From: Vulcanimicrobiota bacterium
GTDB taxonomy: Bacteria > Vulcanimicrobiota > Xenobia > Xenobiales > JADMJV01
DNA length: 64,000 bases
Assembly (NCBI GenBank): GCA_050250895.1
Contig: JBFWNU010000001.1
Span: 1,870,884 to 1,934,883, forward strand
Reading direction: 5' to 3'
Below, one piece after another: positions 8,656 to 60,100 of the stretch (positions are counted from its first letter, which is position 1; every line of letters starts with the position of its first letter). Both the position numbers and the translations under genes were made by a program. The notes under the pieces were generated by a model. That model worked only from the letters and a program-made list of their open reading frames with translations, had not been told where the DNA came from and searched no databases.

Positions 8656-8747
8656 TGGCGGGAATGGGAGGGAGTCGAACCCTCCGAGCGCGCTAACGCC
8701 CCAACGGTTTTGAAGACCGCGGAAGCCACCGGACCCCATCCACTCCC
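8656..8747 (-). tRNA. selC: tRNA-Sec (anticodon UCA)
   Basis: GGGAGTGG...CCATTCCC-G-CCA 8-bp acceptor stem, anticodon loop CTTCAAA, long variable arm, GGTTCGACTCC T arm. Confidence 0.92.
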
Positions 8748-23877: not shown

Positions 23878-23950
23878 TACATTCTAGCTCATTGGTAGAG
23901 CAGTTGTTCCTGAAACAACCTGAGCGGGTTCGATTCCCGCGAAAACCCCA
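23878..23950 (+). ncRNA. tRNA-like element (pseudo-tRNA or tRNA mimic, anticodon position CUG)
   Basis: TAGCTC-ATTGGTA-GAGC D arm, GTTGT-TCCTGAA-ACAAC anticodon arm, GCGGG-TTCGATT-CCCGC T arm; acceptor stem only 3 bp. Confidence 0.65.
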
Positions 23951-54135: not shown

Positions 54136-54825
54136 CTAACAAGTCCCGCAGCAACCGTAGACGAAGCCTCCCAACCCTTCGCACGTGCCACCCGCCGTTC
54201 CCGCGGCCAGCCCGCAACAAGCCACCCCCACGGCGGTTTGGTGGGCGTTGGCGCGAGCGGTAGAGCAGGTCGTGTTGACCTCGATGGGAGCCGAACTGAG
54301 ATCGATGCAATCTGGATTGAAGGCAGCCGGCAGGGCATTAGCGAGCGGGTCGGTAGCGCAGCTACCGCTCGAATCGGTTGGACGGCAGCGCCAGATGATA
54401 CACGAGCAGTTGCTGGCGCACTGACTGGGGTTGGTGCAAAAACAATCCGAGCAGGCCGCGGTGCAGGCGGCGGCGCTGATGCAGGCCGACGACGCGTGGG
54501 CGGGCGTAGGCAAAGCCAGGCTGGTGAGGGCAAGTGCGGCTGCCGCTGTGCCCGAGCCGGCCAGGAACGCGCGGCGAGTCTGGTTGCCCTCGACAAGGCC
54601 CGCGGCTTGCAGCCGAACCAGGGCGGCATCAAGCACCTCTTCACCGCCAACCTCTTCACCAACCTGGCTGCGCGGAGTATGTCCGTCACAGCGCGCGAGG
54701 ATCTGGCTCAATAAGGGAGTCAAGGCATGGGCTTGACGGCTGGAGGGGTCGTAGGCCAGGGCTTCGTCGCCAATCGCGGTGATGGTCAGTCCACTCTTGG
54801 TGGAGGGCATTCTATTTTCAGTCAT
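54136..54825 (-). CDS. PqqD/RRE-like domain + internal Tat-like signal + 18-Cys C-terminal domain
   Basis: IGDEALAYD..AHAL..CDG..LVRLQAAGLV; TRRAFL-hydrophobic-AHA; Cys-rich tail; start could also be 54810. Confidence 0.75.
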   Translation of the reverse strand: MTENRMPSTKSGLTITAIGDEALAYDPSSRQAHALTPLLSQILARCDGHTPRSQVGEEVGGEEVLDAALVRLQAAGLVEGNQTRRAFLAGSGTAAAALALTSLALPTPAHASSACISAAACTAACSDCFCTNPSQCASNCSCIIWRCRPTDSSGSCATDPLANALPAAFNPDCIDLSSAPIEVNTTCSTARANAHQTAVGVACCGLAAGTAGGTCEGLGGFVYGCCGTC

Positions 54826-54938
54826 CTGGACCCGGTTCGTTTCAAGCAAACTCCTTCCTTCTGTTGGCTTTGGCCTGCCTCTTTGGTAGATGAGGGTCAG
54901 GACTTGGGTGGAAGTCTAGTTGTTCGAAAGTGCGGTCG

Positions 54939-55466
54939 CTAGCGAGTCGCCTGGCCGCTATCAACCACTCGAGCTACCGCCGCCACATCGACCGCCGTGG
55001 GTAGATGCAAGAAAACGACCCCGGAGGCCAGCTGATGATGCAGCGCCAGGTAATAGATCTGATTGCAGAGATAGGTGCCGGCGCTGTACGAGAGCACGGT
55101 AGCCAGACCCCCTCGGCGTAGCGCCTCGAGCCAGCCGCGAGTATCGGCTGTCGACCAATAGGCGACCGGGCCGCCGACAACCACTGGTTCATCGATCTGC
55201 ATCCGCCCGTTGGCGTCGGGAATGTCAAAATCGTTGAGATTGACGGCCACACGCTCGACTCGGACGACGCTCGAGCCTCGCGCTTCGCCCAGGCACACCA
55301 GTAGCTCCGGGTTGAGTTCGCGGGCCTTCTTCTCGAGCCTTGGAAAGGCTGTTTGGCTATCGACCGGCAGCAGCAGGGTGGGGTGCTTCACTTGAGCCAG
55401 GACTTCGGCTGAGGGGTTGCGCGAAGCGCCAGCGAACGGTTCGAAGCCCGTAACCAGAATGCTCAT
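54939..55466 (-). CDS. pcp: Pyroglutamyl-peptidase I
   Basis: ILVTGFEPF..NPS, ERVAVN, SAGTYLCN, FLHLP. Confidence 0.93.
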   Translation of the reverse strand: MSILVTGFEPFAGASRNPSAEVLAQVKHPTLLLPVDSQTAFPRLEKKARELNPELLVCLGEARGSSVVRVERVAVNLNDFDIPDANGRMQIDEPVVVGGPVAYWSTADTRGWLEALRRGGLATVLSYSAGTYLCNQIYYLALHHQLASGVVFLHLPTAVDVAAVARVVDSGQATR

Positions 55467-55500
55467 CGAGCTATCTTAGGGGCAGATATCGAAACTCTTG

Positions 55501-55541
55501 CCATGTTACAAATGTAAACGTGACATTGCTGACATGTTAAC
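55501..55541. promoter_or_regulatory. Putative operator CCATGTWAC-N16-TTGCYGACATGTWAAC (copy 2)
   Basis: Gap-free match to 22091-22131. Confidence 0.55.
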
Positions 55542-55638
55542 CTCGAGACACAGGACTGTGGGTAACCCGGTGGATAAACTCACAGACGTCAGGGCTGGTA
55601 TGTCTTTGAACCCTGAAGCCAGGGATTTTTGGGGGGTG

Positions 55639-55667
55639 TTGACATCCCTCCGGCCATGCAGTATCTT
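55639..55667 (+). promoter_or_regulatory. Sigma70-type promoter for the large ncRNA
   Basis: TTGACA-N17-TATCTT. Confidence 0.78.
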
Positions 55668-55673
55668 GCAGTC

Positions 55674-56826
55674 ACTCCAGTCACGGAGTCGCCCCGCCAA
55701 GCGAGAGAGGCGGAGGGGACTAGCACCCCCGACAGGTAACGGTCGAAGGGCTAGAGGTTAGACGCAAACCTTCGTGGTCTACCGCCCAAGCGATGCACCA
55801 GCAAGCGTCTCCAGAGTCTTCACTGGAAACGAGAAGACAGGGCTTGACGGCCAGTTTGGAACCCGCGAGGGGAAAGGGCGACCGGGGTAACTCGGAGCAG
55901 CCGCCAGAGAACGTCGAACAAGAGGCTCGGTTGGTGACCGGGTAGCGGAACGCTCGAGGCCGCGCCACACCACAGTGGCAAAAGAGAGCGAGGCGCACCA
56001 GCCTCGAGGTGTCCGGCCCCATCCGGTAATGTGGGGAGTGTCGTGACGGGCACAAGCGGAGCTGCGACGGTTCGAGCGTAAGCGAGAACTCAAGCCGCGA
56101 CGGTCGGCAGGCCGTGAACAAAGAGCGCAGGGGTGCATCCACCCAAAGGGATGCTGAAGTCACTCTCTAGTAGGAGTGATAGGGCCCACAGCCCGCGTAG
56201 GAACCGCGAGGGGAATGGCTGGCCGAGGAGACTCGAGCAGCGCCCACGAGGGGCACGATGTGGGGAGCCTGAGCGCAGGATGGCACTCGGGCAGCGGACC
56301 GAAGGTGGCCGCGCGAAGACGAGAGTCTTCGGGAAAGACTTCGGGGTTGCGATCTGACCAGAGAATCGCCCAGAGCCGACTGGGAAAACGGGAGGCGAGG
56401 CATCGCCTGAAAGCTCACGGTGGTGGAGCCGGGAGTGGCAACTCGGGCCAGACGCGAAGGCGTCGAACGGCGGGGGCGGAACTGCTAGAAACCGCGACGC
56501 GAGAGCGTGAAAAATGGAGCAGGGGTAGCATGCAGACCAGAGCTATGCGCAGCGTTTCGTCTGAAGGCATTCGAAACGAGGCCCGGCGCGCTAGACGGAC
56601 CCGCGAGGGGTAAAGATCCTGGCAACAGGAAGCCGGCTTAAGCGGACCACGGGAGCTTGGTGCAGGTGGGAAGGCGGCCAAGCAACGGTGACATTCGGTC
56701 TACCGTGACGCCCCAGCGTCGAATGCGAATGTTAGGGTCTTCGCCCCGAAAAAGCGAAGTCGGTTTGCCGGACTGGGAAGAAGGCAAGCTAACAAAGGAC
56801 GCGTTCTTCGGAGCGCGTCTTTTTCT
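55674..56826 (+). ncRNA. Candidate giant structured non-coding RNA (~1.15 kb)
   Basis: Bounded by promoter and terminator, no credible ORF, purine-rich strand, many GNRA/UUCG-capped hairpins. Confidence 0.7.
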
Positions 56827-56830
56827 ATTT
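56797..56830 (+). terminator. Intrinsic terminator
   Basis: GGACGCGTTC-TTCG-GAGCGCGTCT-TTTTCTATTT. Confidence 0.88.
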
Positions 56831-56863
56831 GCCTGGACGAGCTTTTGCTGCTAGCATTCGATC

Positions 56864-57151
56864 ATGGGCTTTGATGAACGGCTAGAGAGACTTGAGCAAC
56901 GAGTCGAGCGTGATGATCAGCATTTGGAGCGGGTGATAGTCACGCAGCGCGAGATTGTCCAAAAGGCCTTTGACCAGGTGAACCTGGCTTTACTTGAGCA
57001 GCAGATAGGCCTCAAGGCCTTCGCGGACAATACTCGAGACAGCCTGCGTGAATTGATTGAGTTGATGAAGGGCCAACGCGCCGAGAATGATCGCGAATTG
57101 GAAGCCATCAAGGCTCGTCTTGACCGGCTGGAGAGCCCTCCCGCGGCCTGA
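56864..57151 (+). CDS. Small coiled-coil hypothetical protein
   Basis: 95 aa; heptad patterns ERLERLEQRVE and IKARLDRLE. Confidence 0.65.
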   Translation: MGFDERLERLEQRVERDDQHLERVIVTQREIVQKAFDQVNLALLEQQIGLKAFADNTRDSLRELIELMKGQRAENDRELEAIKARLDRLESPPAA

Positions 57152-57154
57152 AGA

Positions 57155-60100
57155 CTACTCGCGGCGAGCGACCTGGATGTCGTTGACCCAGATCTCTTCC
57201 TCGTTGACCTCGAGATTGCCCTCCGACTCGTCCTCCATCGACTTTTTCAGGATCATGGTGTCGATGATGTCTTCTACCTTTTTCTCGAGAGGGCGGCCAT
57301 CCTTGGGGTCGAGCGCCTCGAGCATCTTCTGGAATTCGTCGAGCTTCAGGTTGTTGGTCTCGGCCTTGTTCAGGACGTTCTTGAGGGCCTTGAGACAGGC
57401 TCGGAGCGGGTCGACGGGCTGGCCTGACTGCAGACCCACCACCAGCACCTGGCGTCCGAAAGGACCGGCCTGGTGATAGAGTTCGAGGGCCGGCTTTTGA
57501 TGATATTCCCAGTTATAGCTGGCCTCTGGATAAGGTGGGTGGGCTTCCAGAGCTTTCTTCAGCCGGGTCACCTCGCTGCGGGCCTGCTCGAGATTGGCGC
57601 CGTCGCCCAGCAGATCGGCGGCGGCCGGATAGAACAGCCCCAACTCTTTGAGCAGGTCGAGGCGCTGGTCGAGGTTGGTGTTTGCGACCGGGTTCAAAAC
57701 GACCTTGACAGCCTTCGGGTCCTTCTTCTGGCTGAGTAGCTCGAGAAAGTAGAGGCGCGCCGCCTCGCAATCAGGCTTGAGCAGCTGGTTCTTGTAAAGG
57801 TCGAAGCTCGGCTTGAGGGTGTACTCCCACTGATACGAGTCCTCTGGATAGACCCGGGCGCCCTCGGCGGCCTGCTGGTATTGCGAGAGGTGCTCGCGCG
57901 CCACGTTCAAGGTCGTGCCCTGGCCCAGATCGGCTGCGAGCAGGTCGTACATCGGGCCGGCGAACTTGCCGCTCTGTAGCTCGCGGAAGACCTCGATGCG
58001 CTGATTCAGGTCAAGCCCCGGCACGTCGGGAAGCACGTGTTTGACCAGGGCGGGGCTCTGCTTGGCGGCAAGCAGTTCCAGGAAGAATTGCCGGGCCGGT
58101 TCAAGCTCGGGCTCGAGCAACTCGGAATAGAGGCCATAAACCGGCTTGAGGGTGTATTCCCAGTGATAAGGGTCCTCTGGATAGACCCGCGCCTTCTCGC
58201 CCGCGGTGGCAAACTGGGCCGTTCGCTGGCGGGCCTGCTCGAGGTCGTGGCCAGTCTTCATGTCCGCCAGCACCAGGTCATACATCTGGGTCGGGAACTT
58301 CTGTTTCTGGAACTCACCGAAAAGGTCGATCCGCTGGCTCAGGTCCAATCCCGCCACTTCGGGCAGGACATGCTTTACGCTGGTGGCGTCCTTTTTTTCG
58401 CGTAGAAGCTGCAAGAATAGCTGGCGGGCTGGGGCTCGCTCGTCGGCCAGCAATTCGTCTTTATAGAGTTGGTAGGGCTTTTCCAGGGTGTACTGCCAGT
58501 GATAGGGGTCTTCGGGGTAGACACGGGACCCTTCGCCGGCGGCGAAGAACTCGGCCGCTCGCTCTTTGGCCACCTCGAGCGTGGCGCCGGCTTCCAGCTC
58601 GGCCTTGACCAGCTCGTAAGATGGGTTGGGGAATTTACTCTGCTGGCACTCTCGAAACAGCTCGACCCGCTGGCTCAGCCTCAGACCCCTGACCTCGGGC
58701 AGTACGTGCCCGACGGCGGTGGCGTCCTTCTTCTCGCGCAGCAACTGCAAGAACAGCTCGCGTGCCGGCTCGCGAGCGGCATCGAGAAGTTCTCTCTGGT
58801 AAAACTGGTAGGGCTTCTCCAAGGTGTACTGCCAGTGGTAGGGGTCTTCGGGATAGACGCGCGCTTTGTCGCCAGCGGCGAACAGCTCGTCGACTCTTTG
58901 ACGGGCCTGGTCGAGGCTTTGACCGGCACCCATCTCGGCCGCGATCAAGTCGAATTTCTGGGTGGCAAACTTGCCTTCGCGCAATTCACGATAGAGCGTG
59001 ACCCGTCGTTGCAGGTCTAGACCGTTCACCTCTGGCAACAGATGCTTGACCGTTAAGGCGTCTTGCTGGTGGGACAGCATCTCGAGGAAGAGCTGCCTGG
59101 CCGGTTCACGGTCGGGCTTGAGCAATTCGGCCTGGTAGAAGTTGTAGGGCTTCTCGAGGGTGTATTGCCAATGGTAGGAGTCCTCGGAATAGACTCGTGC
59201 TTTCTCGGCCGCCGCCGCGTACTCGAGGGTTCGCTCGCGGGCCTGGTCGAGGCTGCGCCCCTGGGCCAGTTCCCCGCTGGCCAGCGCATAGAGGCGGTCT
59301 GGCAGGGGGTGTTGGCGCAAGGCTCTCATCAACTCGGTCCGCTGCTCGAGGTTGGTCGAGCCGGCTGGTTCAAAGAGCCTGGTGACGTCGACGGGTCGAC
59401 CGCCCTGGAGTTGCTCGAGATAGAGCGCGCGAGCCGGGGTTCGCTCGGGGGACGACAAGGTGGTTTTGACCAGGGTCAGGGCCGGCAGGGCCACTCGGTT
59501 TTCGAAATCGTAGGAGCCTTTGGCTCGGTCCAGGGCAGAGTTCAAGCCGGCTACCGCCCTGGTCGCCTCGGCGTGGGAGTTGCCGCTGGCCACCAGGTCC
59601 ATATGCAAATCGTAGAGCAGCTCGGGCTTGAAGCCTTTGCTGGCGGTGCTCAGGGCTTGCAGCCGCTCGGCCAGACTGCCCTGGCCCCGGTCGAGGCACT
59701 CCCTGTACTCGGACAGTTCGACGAGTTGGGTGGTGCTGGTGACCGCGGTCTTGAGATCGGCAGTCGCGAAGAGTTCGCGCACCTTGTCCGGCTGAGTGGG
59801 GACGGCCTGCACACAGGCCGCCACCGGGTCGTTGGCAAAGGCGGCGTAGAGGGCGGCCGGGCTCTGGCCGCCCAGCTTCGTGAGGCTGGCAAACCCCTCG
59901 GGGTCATCATCGAGCTGCTTAAGAGCGTTGCGCGCTTTGGTCAGCAGGTCGAGGTTGGCGTCGGGTTGATAGAGGCCAATCTGCTTCAAGGCCAGGGCCG
60001 CGTTCTTGGGCTGGTCCCCCAACAGGCGCAGGCGGGTCGCGATCTGCTCGGGGCTTAGCTGGTCGTGCATCGCCTCGATGACCCGGCGGTGGGGTGAACT

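Follow-up and report, generated by a model that had tools for sequence, protein, structure and literature searches.

Evidence for a lineage-restricted superfamily of kilobase-sized structured noncoding RNAs in Xenobia

The window analyzed here is a 64,000-nucleotide stretch of a Vulcanimicrobiota bacterium (Xenobia) genome, contig JBFWNU010000001.1, and it contains about 1,150 nt for which no protein product is apparent. What does this segment encode? A sequence-only reading had proposed an independently transcribed large structured RNA, and this proposal is supported by conservation of the promoter and terminator, a noncoding pattern of change, covariation in three regions, and contigs of relatives, from RNA libraries and metagenome collections, that span the RNA body only. 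We are close to certain that positions 55674 to 56826 of the + strand, as delimited by homology and conservation, form an independent gene whose product is a stable noncoding RNA of ~1,150 nt with extensive structure, one of a superfamily of kilobase-sized RNAs restricted to the lineage of large-genome Xenobia. The RNA is laid out as a 5' domain, three tandem copies of a module, a 3' clamp helix, and a terminator. Neighboring genes in the window encode a peptidase, kinases, and a two-component sensor.

The genome contains six matches to the RNA gene, comprising four full-length copies (82 to 88% identity) and two divergent ones. Homology among the four full-length copies extends from the region of two DnaA-box-like sequences, described below, and stops right at the terminator; the flanks are unrelated. 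The boundaries of the predicted gene are those shown by this conservation. A sigma-70-type promoter lies at 55639-55667 on the + strand (-35 TTGACA, 55639-55644; 17-nt spacer; -10 TATCTT, 55662-55667), as had been read from the sequence, and it places the predicted 5' end at 55673-55674, 6 to 7 nt past the -10 hexamer. The site scored 10/12 in a promoter scan, and two promoter-like sites were found in 54800-57400, compared with 0.5 ± 0.6 in shuffled sequences. TTGAC and TAnnTT are kept in the four full-length copies, where the spacer is variable, and the same pattern of fixed hexamers and varying spacer holds in all 17 aligned homologues. The UUCG-capped terminator that had been noted likewise is present at 56794-56828 (+ strand). 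It consists of a 13-pair stem (56794-56823) followed by a U-tract, within which the 3' end is predicted to fall. It is kept, with changes in the stem, in all four full-length copies and was found by a simple rule in 14 of 19 full-length homologues. A script check of every sequence feature listed in the sequence-only reading found each one in place; that reading had missed that the gene is multicopy, that it contains repeated pseudoknot modules, and that DnaA boxes lie upstream.

The noncoding nature of the segment was assessed from its composition and from the changes between paralogues. The + strand is, as had been stated, purine rich, at 60.7% A+G. Over 55750-56800, both skews are positive, at +0.12 to +0.24 for GC and +0.29 to +0.41 for AT. 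Each of the six frames contains 5 to 14 stops, and the longest open stretch is 151 codons. Indels between pairs of paralogues, nearly all of 1 to 2 nt, were mostly not multiples of three (12/12, 15/15, 13/15, 5/5, 10/11, and 11/13), and mismatches were spread evenly over the three phases with no 3-periodicity. The absence of a protein-like ORF stands on stops in all frames, frame-breaking indels, and a lack of codon periodicity. A conserved ORF with codon-like substitutions had been named as evidence that would count against an RNA; between paralogues the pattern was noncoding.

These data bear on the suggestion that the segment is a long cis-regulatory leader or codes for a protein or small peptide, which we regard as scarcely credible. 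A 95-codon ORF (56864-57151) does begin 38 nt past the terminator, and mechanically called ORFs of up to 145 to 147 codons overlap the RNA region. However, a strong terminator precedes the downstream ORF, which has no Pfam match, and the downstream sequence is unrelated among paralogues; the overlapping ORFs are not conserved between copies, indels break their frames, and no conserved frame was seen in the alignments.

Single-sequence measures of structure are weak on their own. GNRA words number 81, compared with 69.6 ± 6.2 in dinucleotide shuffles, a marginal excess, and the folding energy has a z score of -2.75 (30 shuffles). The claim that the strand is packed with RNA-type tetraloops thus held for the stems listed, all of which are present, while GNRA words were only marginally above shuffles. 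A CsrB/CsrA-type sponge was considered and rejected, since GGA (34 versus 36.6 ± 4.1) and GGAG (14 versus 14.8 ± 2.9) were at the level of the shuffles, and these counts, too, are weak when taken singly. The proof that the structure exceeds chance rests on homologues and covariation rather than on the single sequence.

We then asked whether the RNA belongs to a known family and ran cmscan with the complete set of 4,227 families in Rfam 15. At the gathering score, the whole window yielded only tRNA-Sec and two tRNA matches, all outside the RNA gene. At an E value of ≤10, the region 55300-57000 yielded only chance-level matches to Twister-P5 (E = 0.21) and mir-1471 (E = 7.5) and none to a large-RNA family. 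The Twister-P5 match (55408-55451) was dismissed; it scores 20.4 bits against a cutoff of 37.6 and lies upstream of the RNA in the pyroglutamyl-peptidase ORF. Eight related loci gave no Rfam match. With these three scans, assignment to a known RNA family was rejected. The sequence-only reading had advised this very search, and the GOLLD, ROOL, OLE, HEARO, and intron models all went without a match. Its suggested resemblance to GOLLD was not upheld, there being no Rfam match at the gathering score and none to large-RNA families at an E value of ≤10; of the two options it offered, a divergent GOLLD relative or a new class, the second is favored by the lack of any Rfam family match to the RNA in the window or to the eight related loci. 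Its statement that no group II intron signature is visible agrees with the absence of any intron model at an E value of ≤10. A group II intron was accordingly rejected, also on the basis of the RNA's own promoter and terminator and the lack of a neighboring reverse transcriptase. The companion statement, that RNase P, tmRNA, and rRNA signatures are missing, was addressed for RNase P, whose RNA sits elsewhere in the genome (305 bits), and a role as an RNase P replacement was dropped. A weak 6S-like match (30.7 bits) also is located elsewhere in the genome. In the papers searched, we found no description of RNAs from this lineage, and two recent large screens for noncoding elements are silent on it, a listing in supplementary material being possible.

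The 5' domain is formed by two hairpins and an H-type pseudoknot, all on the + strand. The hairpin ACTCC/GGAGT that had been proposed at 55674 is present as P1 (55674-55689; ACUCC-AGUCAC-GGAGU); it is 94.7% paired, three of its five pairs show compensatory change, and its loop motif GUCAC is kept in 18 of 19 sequences. P2 (55694-55713; CCGCC/GGCGG) has a conserved 10-nt loop, AAGCGAGAGA, and is 100% paired, with three of five pairs compensated (GC, AU, and CG types). The pseudoknot (55715-55755) comprises stem A (GGGG, 55715-55718, with CCCC, 55727-55730) and stem B (CUAGCAC, 55720-55726, with GGGCUAG, ~55748-55754), which enclose hairpin P4 (GAC, 55731-55733, with GUC, 55742-55744). Helices 3, 4, and 5 of the domain, in the pseudoknot region, are 97.3%, 90.6%, and 97.4% paired; five of the seven stem B pairs are compensated, and pair 46-59 changes from AU to GC in 7 of 16 sequences. 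In a plain MAFFT alignment that comprises 19 sequences, the domain has 94.8% of its cells paired, compared with 35 to 52% when partners are slid, and 16 of 29 pairs are compensated, a value reached by none of 500 shuffles.

The body of the RNA contains many recurring elements, all on the + strand. Script searches placed exact repeats of CCCGCGAGGG at 55862 and 56600 and of CCGCGAGGGG at 55863, 56204, and 56601. CCC-GCGA-GGG hairpins at 55862-55871, 56204-56213, and 56600-56609 share the context GGAACC(C)GCGAGGGGAA, and GGTCTACCG occurs at 55776 and 56697, so that the internal motifs described earlier, three of the first kind and two of the second, were located exactly. The third GCGA hairpin appears in homologues as CCCGG-UGA-CGGG, CCCA-GCGA-UGGG, and CUCCA-GCAA-UGGAG, as read off an alignment in which the MAFFT register differs. 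Other elements include CCGGGGTAACTCGG (55882), ACGCGAGAGCGT (56497), TCCTGGCAACAGGA (56617), GACGCGAAGGCGTC (56451), and the stems CGTTTCG (56553)/CGAAACG (56572) and ACATTCG (56691)/CGAATGT (56726); the further stems that had been named (56451, 56135, 56553, and 56691) are all present.

Three regions of the RNA are copies of one unit, in which a closing helix is joined by the invariant GGGGUAGC, a bulged hairpin whose loop reads xxACCxxA, and a compact pseudoknot. Model R1 of this module recognizes all three (16.4, 22.5, and 103 bits, in 5' to 3' order), and only the third is nearly invariant. Module M1 (56124-56194, + strand) is a divergent copy with a weak match (16.4 bits; E = 0.13), and the equivalent position scores 25 to 31 bits in the homologues L022, L008, and L006. 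RNAalifold predicts its closing helix (CUGCG, 56062-56066, with CGCAG, 56126-56130), which is followed by GGGGUGC and then by GCAUCC-ACCCAAAG-GGAUGC (56135-56154). Module M2 (56337-56408, + strand; 22.5 bits, E = 0.004; 29 to 31 bits at the equivalent position in L005 and L006) consists of GGGGUUGC, the hairpin GCGAUC-UGACCAGA-GAAUCGC, and the hairpin CCCAG-AGCCGA-CUGGG, which replaces the pseudoknot. As its closing helix we propose 56299-56304 with 56339-56344.

Module M3 (56466-56591, + strand) is the most conserved stretch of the RNA, and the R1 match within it (56516-56591) scores 103.2 bits. Its helix Pa (CUGCU, 56482-56486, with AGCAG, 56518-56522) is 97.9% paired and encloses the inner hairpin ACGC-GAGA-GCGU (56497-56508; 97.3% paired). 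These are followed by GGGGUAGC (56523-56530), hairpin Pb with the loop AGACCAGA (56528-56548; 93.9% paired), pseudoknot stem X (CAG, 56550-56552, with CUG, 56561-56563), pseudoknot stem Y (56553-56559 with 56572-56578; 100% paired), and GGCCCG (56580-56585). Stem X is invariant within the family and covaries only once related classes are included, pair 41-52 then being AU 46 times, GC 6 times, and CG and UA once each. The 3' clamp helix (56654-56683, + strand; GAGCUUGGUGC with GGCGGCCAAGC) is 99.4% paired and shows compensation in three of nine pairs (CG is replaced by UA in 9 of 19). It is common to related RNA classes and closes many class B metagenome contigs.

The sequence-only reading had suggested covariation among homologues as a check, and it proved strong in the three regions that were tested separately, each with its own shuffle and slid-partner controls. 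Across 57 copies, the ~75-nt module is 92.5% paired, with 14 of 18 pairs compensated, and this covariation takes in the pseudoknot stem, which the search model had left out. The core is 98.1% paired, compared with 32 to 41% for slid partners, with 12 of 48 pairs compensated, and on four of five measures its observed value was reached by none of 500 shuffles. For the 5' domain, core, and module alike, none of 500 shuffles reached the observed covariation score and slid controls were 29 to 52% paired; the sequences are kin and not independent, and structureless relatives can exceed a shuffle control, to which the slid-partner control is only a partial answer. Pairs were not counted on the two-class MAFFT alignment A1 because pseudoknot registers are shifted there. 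RNAalifold consensus structures (of 19 sequences, projected onto this copy, and of the 5 closest) contained partly conflicting long-range pairs. In one such case, 55676-55682 would pair with 56771-56777 in competition with P1, which covariation supports; therefore, only helices tested region by region are given here. Two tertiary pairings are possible, in each of which all sides are invariant: the P1 loop GUCAC with GUGAC words of the 3' region, and the GGU of GGGGUAGC with the ACC loop.

Homologues were sought to define the distribution of the gene. When 41 related genomes were searched at the DNA level, 13 gave a match, and homologues of 1.0 to 1.6 kb occur in two genera of one Xenobia (Vulcanimicrobiota) family. 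Three families (f1, f2, and f5) count as RNA positive, whereas f3 and the remainder of the phylum are negative. The full-length homologues measure 989 to 1,638 nt, and about 50 full-length members come from genomes and metagenomes. The core module is present in all six copies of the present genome. By model R1, sister-genus RNAs carry three to five modules at a spacing of 180 to 260 nt, and metagenome contigs carry up to six (167 matches in 74 contigs). L036, a tandem-module RNA, lies between a TTGACA-17-TATATT promoter of its own and a terminator, which are separated by about 1.25 kb. The paralogues of this genome sit in unrelated contexts. In an all-against-all blastp comparison of 248 flanking ORFs from 17 contexts, only two protein clusters recurred in at least three contexts. 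No reverse transcriptase domain was found among the scanned neighbors, in agreement with what had been read from the sequence.

Upstream of the promoter are two DnaA-box-like 9-mers on the + strand, TGTGGGTAA (55557-55565) and GGTGGATAA (55569-55577), each with one mismatch to the consensus and lying 82 and 70 nt, respectively, before the start of the -35 element. The two share one orientation, and the position of the pair is kept in paralogues and in a second genus. When the 160 nt upstream of each of 20 distinct family promoters were examined, 11 promoters had one or more boxes. The boxes total 21, where 0.01 would be expected per 160-nt stretch, and most lie at -81/-82 and -69/-70, in a single orientation. 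With a second filter, 9 of 21 promoters bore boxes. The best box cluster in the genome, of five boxes, is located directly upstream of dnaA. From these matches we infer that DnaA could bind at 55557-55577. Boxes are absent from 9 of the 20 family promoters, including those of the two divergent copies in this genome, and from all seven class B promoters examined; therefore, DnaA control is not essential to the family.

Might the conserved unit instead act as DNA, as a nonautonomous mobile sequence or as a locus that titrates DnaA and is transcribed only incidentally? We consider this very improbable. The gene is multicopy, two of its copies lie 5 kb apart and are 97% identical, and boxes lie upstream, as such an element would have it; contigs that end at its borders also could be assembly breaks at a repeat. 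Nevertheless, neither terminal repeats nor target duplications were seen nearby, nor was a transposase, reverse transcriptase, or integrase; the conserved unit is exactly promoter, RNA, and terminator, and boxes are missing from 9 of 20 promoters. Compensatory pair changes reflect selection on an RNA fold and not on DNA, and this covariation largely refutes the reading. No match was obtained when the RNA was compared by blastn with 50,697 phage records, the module pattern had no matches in viral contigs, and the RNA had none in plasmid collections; a phage, plasmid, or mobile origin likewise was set aside, finding no support in these searches or among the neighbors.

Evidence of expression comes from contigs of relatives rather than from reads on the copy at 55674-56826. 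In two metatranscriptome-labeled runs of one study, such contigs cover 55684-56763 only, and the word depth of relatives reaches 1,600 in the RNA runs, compared with 4 to 26 in a larger DNA run (run X1 is probably DNA). The flanks (55300-55665 and 56825-57100) are uncovered in the RNA runs, which is uninformative, as flanks differ between copies and the runs contain relatives. Among short (<2.6 kb) metagenome contigs, 42 of 71 start no more than 25 nt before the P2 motif, which corresponds to RNA positions +1 to +19, and about 30 of them end 115 to 230 nt past the clamp, where terminators lie. Assembly breaks also can make contigs stop at the borders of a multicopy element, yet these contigs run through the core, which is even more conserved. 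The RNA family is apparently abundant in environmental RNA. The shares of the sequencing runs all are ≤0.33, and any reading of habitat is limited to run labels.

Transcription very probably begins at ~55674 from the near-consensus sigma-70 promoter and stops at the intrinsic terminator near 56826. As to function, we suggest that the RNA would act in trans as an abundant multivalent scaffold, a mechanism that we put forward tentatively, giving it little more than a one-in-three chance. The repeated modules would show one invariant surface several times, three times here and three to six times in sister classes; therefore, one RNA could hold several copies of one partner, which most likely would be a protein encoded elsewhere in the genome. 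The DnaA-box pair, found upstream of this copy and of about half of the family, would tie synthesis to replication initiation or growth state. The putative partner, the presumed use of multivalency, and the predicted DnaA control all are inferred. Identity and scaffold mechanism together form our best explanation, and its prospect of being right as a whole falls somewhat short of even. Against the scaffold, strong conservation is seen in only one of the three modules of this RNA, so that the copies may be duplicates in structure without being equivalent as binding sites.

A lone invariant core is as compatible with catalysis, or with a function at a single site, as with a scaffold. Were the RNA a ribozyme, or the catalytic component of a ribonucleoprotein, M3 and the clamp region (56466-56683) would be the active site and the remainder a peripheral scaffold, as in RNase P and group I/II introns. 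Unpaired nucleotides of the core, for example, GCGGGGGCGGAACUGCU, GAAAAAUGG, GGGGUAGC, UCUGAAGGCAU, and GGCGGCCA, vary little or not at all across two genera, an extreme conservation that speaks for this account, as do the variation of peripheral lengths by up to ~650 nt and the pseudoknot-rich architecture. We nevertheless judge it improbable: the RNA resembles no Rfam ribozyme family and does not replace RNase P, the RNA of which is encoded elsewhere; gene context hints at no substrate; and multiplication of the module three to six times in sister classes would be unusual for an active site.

It is somewhat less unlikely, by analogy, that the RNA self-associates into a symmetric homo-oligomer, an RNA-only quaternary assembly in which modules and GNRA hairpins would be RNA contacts and not protein sites. 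Such an assembly would accord with the size of the RNA, its many GNRA-capped stems, and its pseudoknots, as well as with the very high depth in RNA libraries and the finding that no conserved protein gene adjoins any of the 17 contexts. Precedent exists in that GOLLD, ROOL, and OLE form homo-oligomeric complexes, as described in PMC12286853. However, coexpressed paralogues of 80 to 88% identity would mix, which is awkward for a symmetric cage, and no link to phages or tRNA clusters was seen, with no matches in the viral contigs or phage records searched. The multivalent scaffold remains our preferred mechanism. A bolder reading, which we offer as speculation that probably will not hold in full, is that large-genome Xenobia possess a hitherto undescribed superfamily of abundant kilobase-sized RNAs, several paralogues per genome, with three to six tandem copies of one pseudoknotted module set between a shared 5' hairpin domain and a 3' clamp, and that these constitute a new RNA machine, either a pseudosymmetric RNA-only one or the catalytic or organizing RNA of an unknown ribonucleoprotein, with one subfamily wired to DnaA.

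Large complex bacterial RNA classes are few: the ribosome, RNase P, group I/II introns, OLE, GOLLD, and ROOL. Earlier classes repaid study, OLE, GOLLD, and ROOL having yielded unexpected RNA-only assemblies. The Xenobia RNA, for which no known family was matched, appears to represent a new class among the large RNAs of bacteria; it is longer than OLE, GOLLD, and ROOL, is multicopy, and is built on a tandem pseudoknotted module whose number varies between classes. RNAs with three, four, five, and six modules provide a natural series for the study of how large RNAs evolve by internal duplication, and they include well-defined targets for cryo-electron microscopy. The upstream boxes hint that DnaA and a noncoding RNA may be connected in a new way. 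To our knowledge, the host lineage of this class is uncultivated and its cell biology almost wholly obscure.

Comparison with known systems helps to place the RNA. Like members of the DnaA regulon, the gene has two 9-mers within one mismatch of TTATCCACA, 12 nt apart, upstream of a sigma-70 promoter; unlike them, it belongs to a family of which only about half has putative boxes, and no gene for a large structured RNA is known to us to be controlled by DnaA. CsrB and RsmZ serve as a working analogy, in that a single RNA shows many copies of one binding element. In those RNAs, which measure 100 to 350 nt, the repeated element is a simple GGA hairpin, whereas the Xenobia repeat is a ~75-nt pseudoknotted module. 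GGA is not enriched in the Xenobia RNA, which is not a member of that family. The raiA motif RNA is ~200 nt, single domain, and widespread in Firmicutes and Actinobacteria, whereas the Xenobia RNA is five to eight times larger, modular, confined to one class, and without an Rfam match. The two are alike in being stand-alone, apparently very abundant structured RNAs, the abundance of raiA being given in PMC12968392 as similar to the levels of rRNAs and tRNAs.

With OLE, the Xenobia RNA shares large size, high conservation, abundance, a structured fold, and restriction to one bacterial lineage. OLE is a single-copy gene in an operon beside its protein partners, whereas the Xenobia RNA has six dispersed copies with no conserved neighbor and no match to the OLE model. 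GOLLD and ROOL are linked to phages and tRNA clusters. The Xenobia RNA differs from them in being longer, chromosomal, and multicopy, with its own promoter and tandem module repeats, and in occurring only in Xenobia; it does not match their Rfam models and is absent from the viral contigs and phage records searched. It nevertheless resembles both in its large size, its many GNRA-capped stems, its pseudoknots, and its lack of coding potential, and all of these RNAs are candidates for higher-order RNA architecture.

The motifs named in the sequence-only reading of the candidate RNA gene (window 55674-56826, + strand) were all located by script at their positions when the sequence was re-read. 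The promoter proposed there (TTGACA-17-TATCTT, 55639-55667) scored 10 of 12 in a consensus scan, which also recovered the terminator as a 13-pair stem at 56794-56823. The + strand was confirmed as purine rich (A+G = 60.7%), with GC and AT skew positive across the element. As proposed, it holds no protein-like ORF: each frame contains 5 to 14 stops, and the longest mechanical ORFs overlapping the region are 145 to 147 codons. Analysis of the single sequence gave a folding-energy z of -2.75 (30 shuffles) and 81 GNRA words, against 69.6 +/- 6.2 in shuffles. Because this structural signal is modest, the case rests on comparative data. We also noted an ORF of 95 codons (56864-57151, + strand), heptad-like and Leu/Glu rich, that starts just past the terminator; it has no Pfam match and is not conserved beside other copies of the RNA.

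The source genome (9.5 Mb, 17 contigs) contains four full-length copies at 82 to 88% identity and two divergent ones, which profile searches revealed to be full-length as well. In order to map the borders of the unit, the four close copies were aligned with their flanks. Homology begins some 150 nt ahead of the transcript, takes in the -35 and -10 hexamers (the spacer varies), spans the whole RNA, and ends directly after the terminator U-tract, beyond which the flanks are unrelated. Paralogue indels are almost all 1 to 2 nt, and those not divisible by three number 12/12, 15/15, 13/15, 5/5, 10/11, and 11/13 for the respective pairs; substitutions showed no codon phase. The sharp borders, unrelated flanks, and frame-breaking indels indicate that the unit is a noncoding gene family rather than a mobile element or leader. 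We regard an element acting at the DNA level or by mobility as very improbable, and a leader or coding sequence as more improbable still. Genes near the window copy encode a pyroglutamyl peptidase, a Ser/Thr kinase, a hybrid histidine kinase, and a large protein lacking any firm Pfam match. Among 248 flanking ORFs from 17 contexts, only two protein clusters occurred in at least three contexts. Two paralogues (G000:C2:138087-139249 and 143084-144246) are separated by 5 kb on one strand and share 97% identity, which suggests either that one was recently duplicated in tandem or that gene conversion has occurred.

Of 41 related genomes searched at the DNA level, 13 gave matches, usually several per genome, including the one further genome of the same genus and 7 of 8 genomes of genus g3. 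Full-length homologues recovered by profile searches measured 989 to 1,638 nt, and a crude rule detected a terminator in 14 of 19. One locus (L093:7540-9682, on G013:C57) carries a full-length minus-strand member head-to-head with a partial or divergent plus-strand copy, their starts within about 50 nt, which suggests a divergent promoter pair.

Three regions were tested for covariation by pair counting with slid-partner and shuffle controls. In a plain MAFFT alignment of 19 sequences, the 5' domain comprises hairpins P1 and P2, an H-type pseudoknot (GGGG/CCCC crossing CUAGCAC/GGGCUAG) enclosing helix P4, and then P5. Here 94.8% of cells were paired, compared with 35 to 52% for slid partners, 16 of 29 pairs were compensated, and none of 500 shuffles reached the observed values. 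The core (56440-56700) was 98.1% paired (32 to 41% slid), with 12 of 48 pairs compensated; the observed value for further pair types, one of the five measures, was reached by 476 of 500 shuffles because the region is so conserved. For a repeated module, 57 copies drawn from both RNA classes were aligned with a 76-position model built from 21 copies. In this alignment, two of whose three helices are fitted to the model, 92.5% of cells were paired and 14 of 18 pairs compensated. The sequences counted in these tests include kin, which are not independent. Pseudoknot stem X, which lies outside that model and is invariant within this RNA's own family, was 83.5% paired, with AU exchanged for GC, CG, and UA at one pair. 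Compensated pairs in 5' domain, core, and module thus bear out the structured RNA that had been proposed. Long-range pairs differ between global RNAalifold runs, so that the helices are supported region by region, not as a full 1,150-nt fold. Separately, CCAGUC and GUCAC of the invariant P1 loop and stem have perfect complements, GACUGG and GUGAC, near the 3' end (stretches 55678-55683 and 56770-56775; 56688-56692 and 56703-56707). Homologues have them too, a hint of a possible 5'-3' tertiary contact or alternative fold.

The module consists, in order, of a closing helix, an invariant GGGGUAGC, a 6-pair bulged hairpin whose 8-nt loop has an ACC core, a compact pseudoknot (CGCAG/CUGCG crossing a 6- to 7-pair stem), and GGCC. 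Its covariance model, R1, finds it three times in this RNA: M3 at 56516-56591 (103 bits), M2 at 56337-56408 (22.5 bits, E = 0.004), and, weakly, M1 at 56124-56194 (16.4 bits, E = 0.13). In homologues, the positions of M1 and M2 reach 25 to 45 bits. The CCC-GCGA-GGG hairpin also occurs three times in the same sequence context. Within the source genome, modules are confined to the six RNA genes. Other RNAs with 3 to 5 modules spaced 180 to 260 nt apart were found in genera g2 and g4 and family f5 (L036:6193-7485, L043:3750-4930, L030, L038, and L015-L018). Many metagenome contigs (e.g., loci L110, L124, L156, and L168) also have the module, in up to six copies (at least 167 matches in at least 74 contigs, among the matches listed). 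At L036 a TTGACA-17-TATATT promoter, identical to that at L043, and a terminator stand about 1.25 kb apart. These sister classes, none of which occurs in the window's own genome, have TTGACA promoters of their own, a common 5' start, and 3 to 6 tandem modules; the P2-like 5' hairpin and the 3' clamp helix (56654-56683 here) are common to them and to this RNA.

Across the phylum, R1 matched 19 of 151 sampled genomes: 12 of 15 in family f1, 5 of 5 in f2, the single genome of f5, none of 19 in the small-genome family f3 of the same order, and none in all other families. Scores of at least 87 bits, which mark the RNA family proper, were confined in this sample to genera g1 and g3. Scanning 185,579 species genomes for the exact pattern gave 25 stretches, with record titles of Vulcanimicrobiota or Candidatus Xenobia MAGs. 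Other labels also occur: "bacterium" on some contigs, and "uncultured Burkholderiales" or "Selenomonadaceae" on RNA-bearing contigs such as those of L025, L042, and L045/L048. The three that were checked match contigs of the window's GTDB relatives (G005:C20, G014:C429, and G001:C418) and hold the same loci, so the Burkholderiales and Selenomonadaceae labels look wrong.

Evidence for expression comes from relatives. Aligned to the window copy, their contigs cover 55684-56763 only; they derive from two runs of one study recorded as metatranscriptomes. Summed word depths were in the hundreds, up to 1,600, in these two RNA runs, compared with 4 to 26 in a larger DNA run; the fourth run bears an RNA label but is probably DNA. 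A metagenome scan matched at least 120 contigs, 80 of those listed being taken as loci. Among these listed matches, 71 of 80 are 1.0 to 2.5 kb long, and 42 of the 71 start no more than 25 nt before the P2 motif (RNA +1 to +19), never including the promoter; about 30 end 115 to 230 nt past the clamp, where terminators lie. One contig starts at the equivalent of 55673-55674. Assembly breaks at the borders of a multicopy element can produce such transcript-shaped ends, and the libraries behind these contigs may be DNA or RNA, but the contigs run through the still more conserved core. The evidence for discrete, abundant transcripts is good but indirect, and it concerns the family rather than this copy in particular.

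The DnaA-box consensus is TTATCCACA. Two candidate boxes, each with one mismatch to it, lie upstream of the promoter: TGTGGGTAA (55557-55565) and GGTGGATAA (55569-55577). Among 20 distinct promoters of the family, 11 carry one or more such boxes in the 160 nt upstream (21 boxes in total; the expectation in this genome is 0.01 per 160 nt), mostly at -81/-82 and -69/-70, in one orientation and in both genera. In a second promoter selection, 9 of 21 had boxes, against none of the 7 from the other RNA class. The densest cluster in the genome (5 boxes in 160 nt, G000:C1:1144284-1144444) lies directly upstream of dnaA (match C1:1144953-1145435), so the consensus seems valid for this organism. Either oriC or the promoter region of dnaA may lie at this cluster or at a second one (3 boxes, 1154728-1154852), both some 780 kb away from the window. 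It is reasonable to infer that DnaA may control some of these RNA genes.

This RNA is stand-alone, multicopy, structured, modular, and lineage restricted, and it is present in RNA libraries through relatives' contigs. Our leading, though tentative, proposal is that it would act as a multivalent scaffold for a trans-encoded partner. In its favor, RNAs with anywhere from 3 to 6 modules preserve the invariant module surface; against it, only one module is nearly invariant in this RNA's family, which would suit a single active or binding site. A ribozyme or catalytic ribonucleoprotein core we consider doubtful. Somewhat less doubtful would be an RNA-only oligomeric architecture, as reported in PMC12286853 for GOLLD, ROOL, and OLE. 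What probability remains goes to something else.

All 4,227 Rfam families were compared by cmscan. At gathering score, the matches in the whole window were a tRNA-Sec and two tRNAs, all outside the RNA gene. The tRNA-Sec gene (8660-8747, - strand, 73.3 bits) means that the organism probably uses selenocysteine; a tRNA-like match at 23882-23943 (+ strand), spanning model positions 5 to 66 only, without acceptor-stem ends, may be a tRNA fragment, e.g., an integration-site remnant. With permissive filters (E ≤ 10), 55300-57000 gave two matches, Twister-P5 (E = 0.21) and mir-1471 (E = 7.5). The former (55408-55451, + strand), at 20.4 bits against a cutoff of 37.6, lies upstream of the RNA inside the opposite-strand pyroglutamyl-peptidase ORF and is most likely due to chance. 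Replacement of RNase P RNA is ruled out, since that RNA is present elsewhere in the genome. An Rfam scan of eight related loci gave no matches, phage and plasmid collections held no similar DNA, and viral contigs did not match the core pattern; on these grounds the suggested likeness to GOLLD is unsupported. Literature searches on Xenobia or Eremiobacterota RNAs turned up no paper on such an RNA, and the main text of two recent genome-language-model screens contains no mention of these. Of the options first put forward, we favor the new class, and rate this RNA as such among large bacterial RNAs. Its likeness to the "ornate large RNA" group (GOLLD, ROOL, and OLE) extends to size and complexity only, and it belongs to none of those families.
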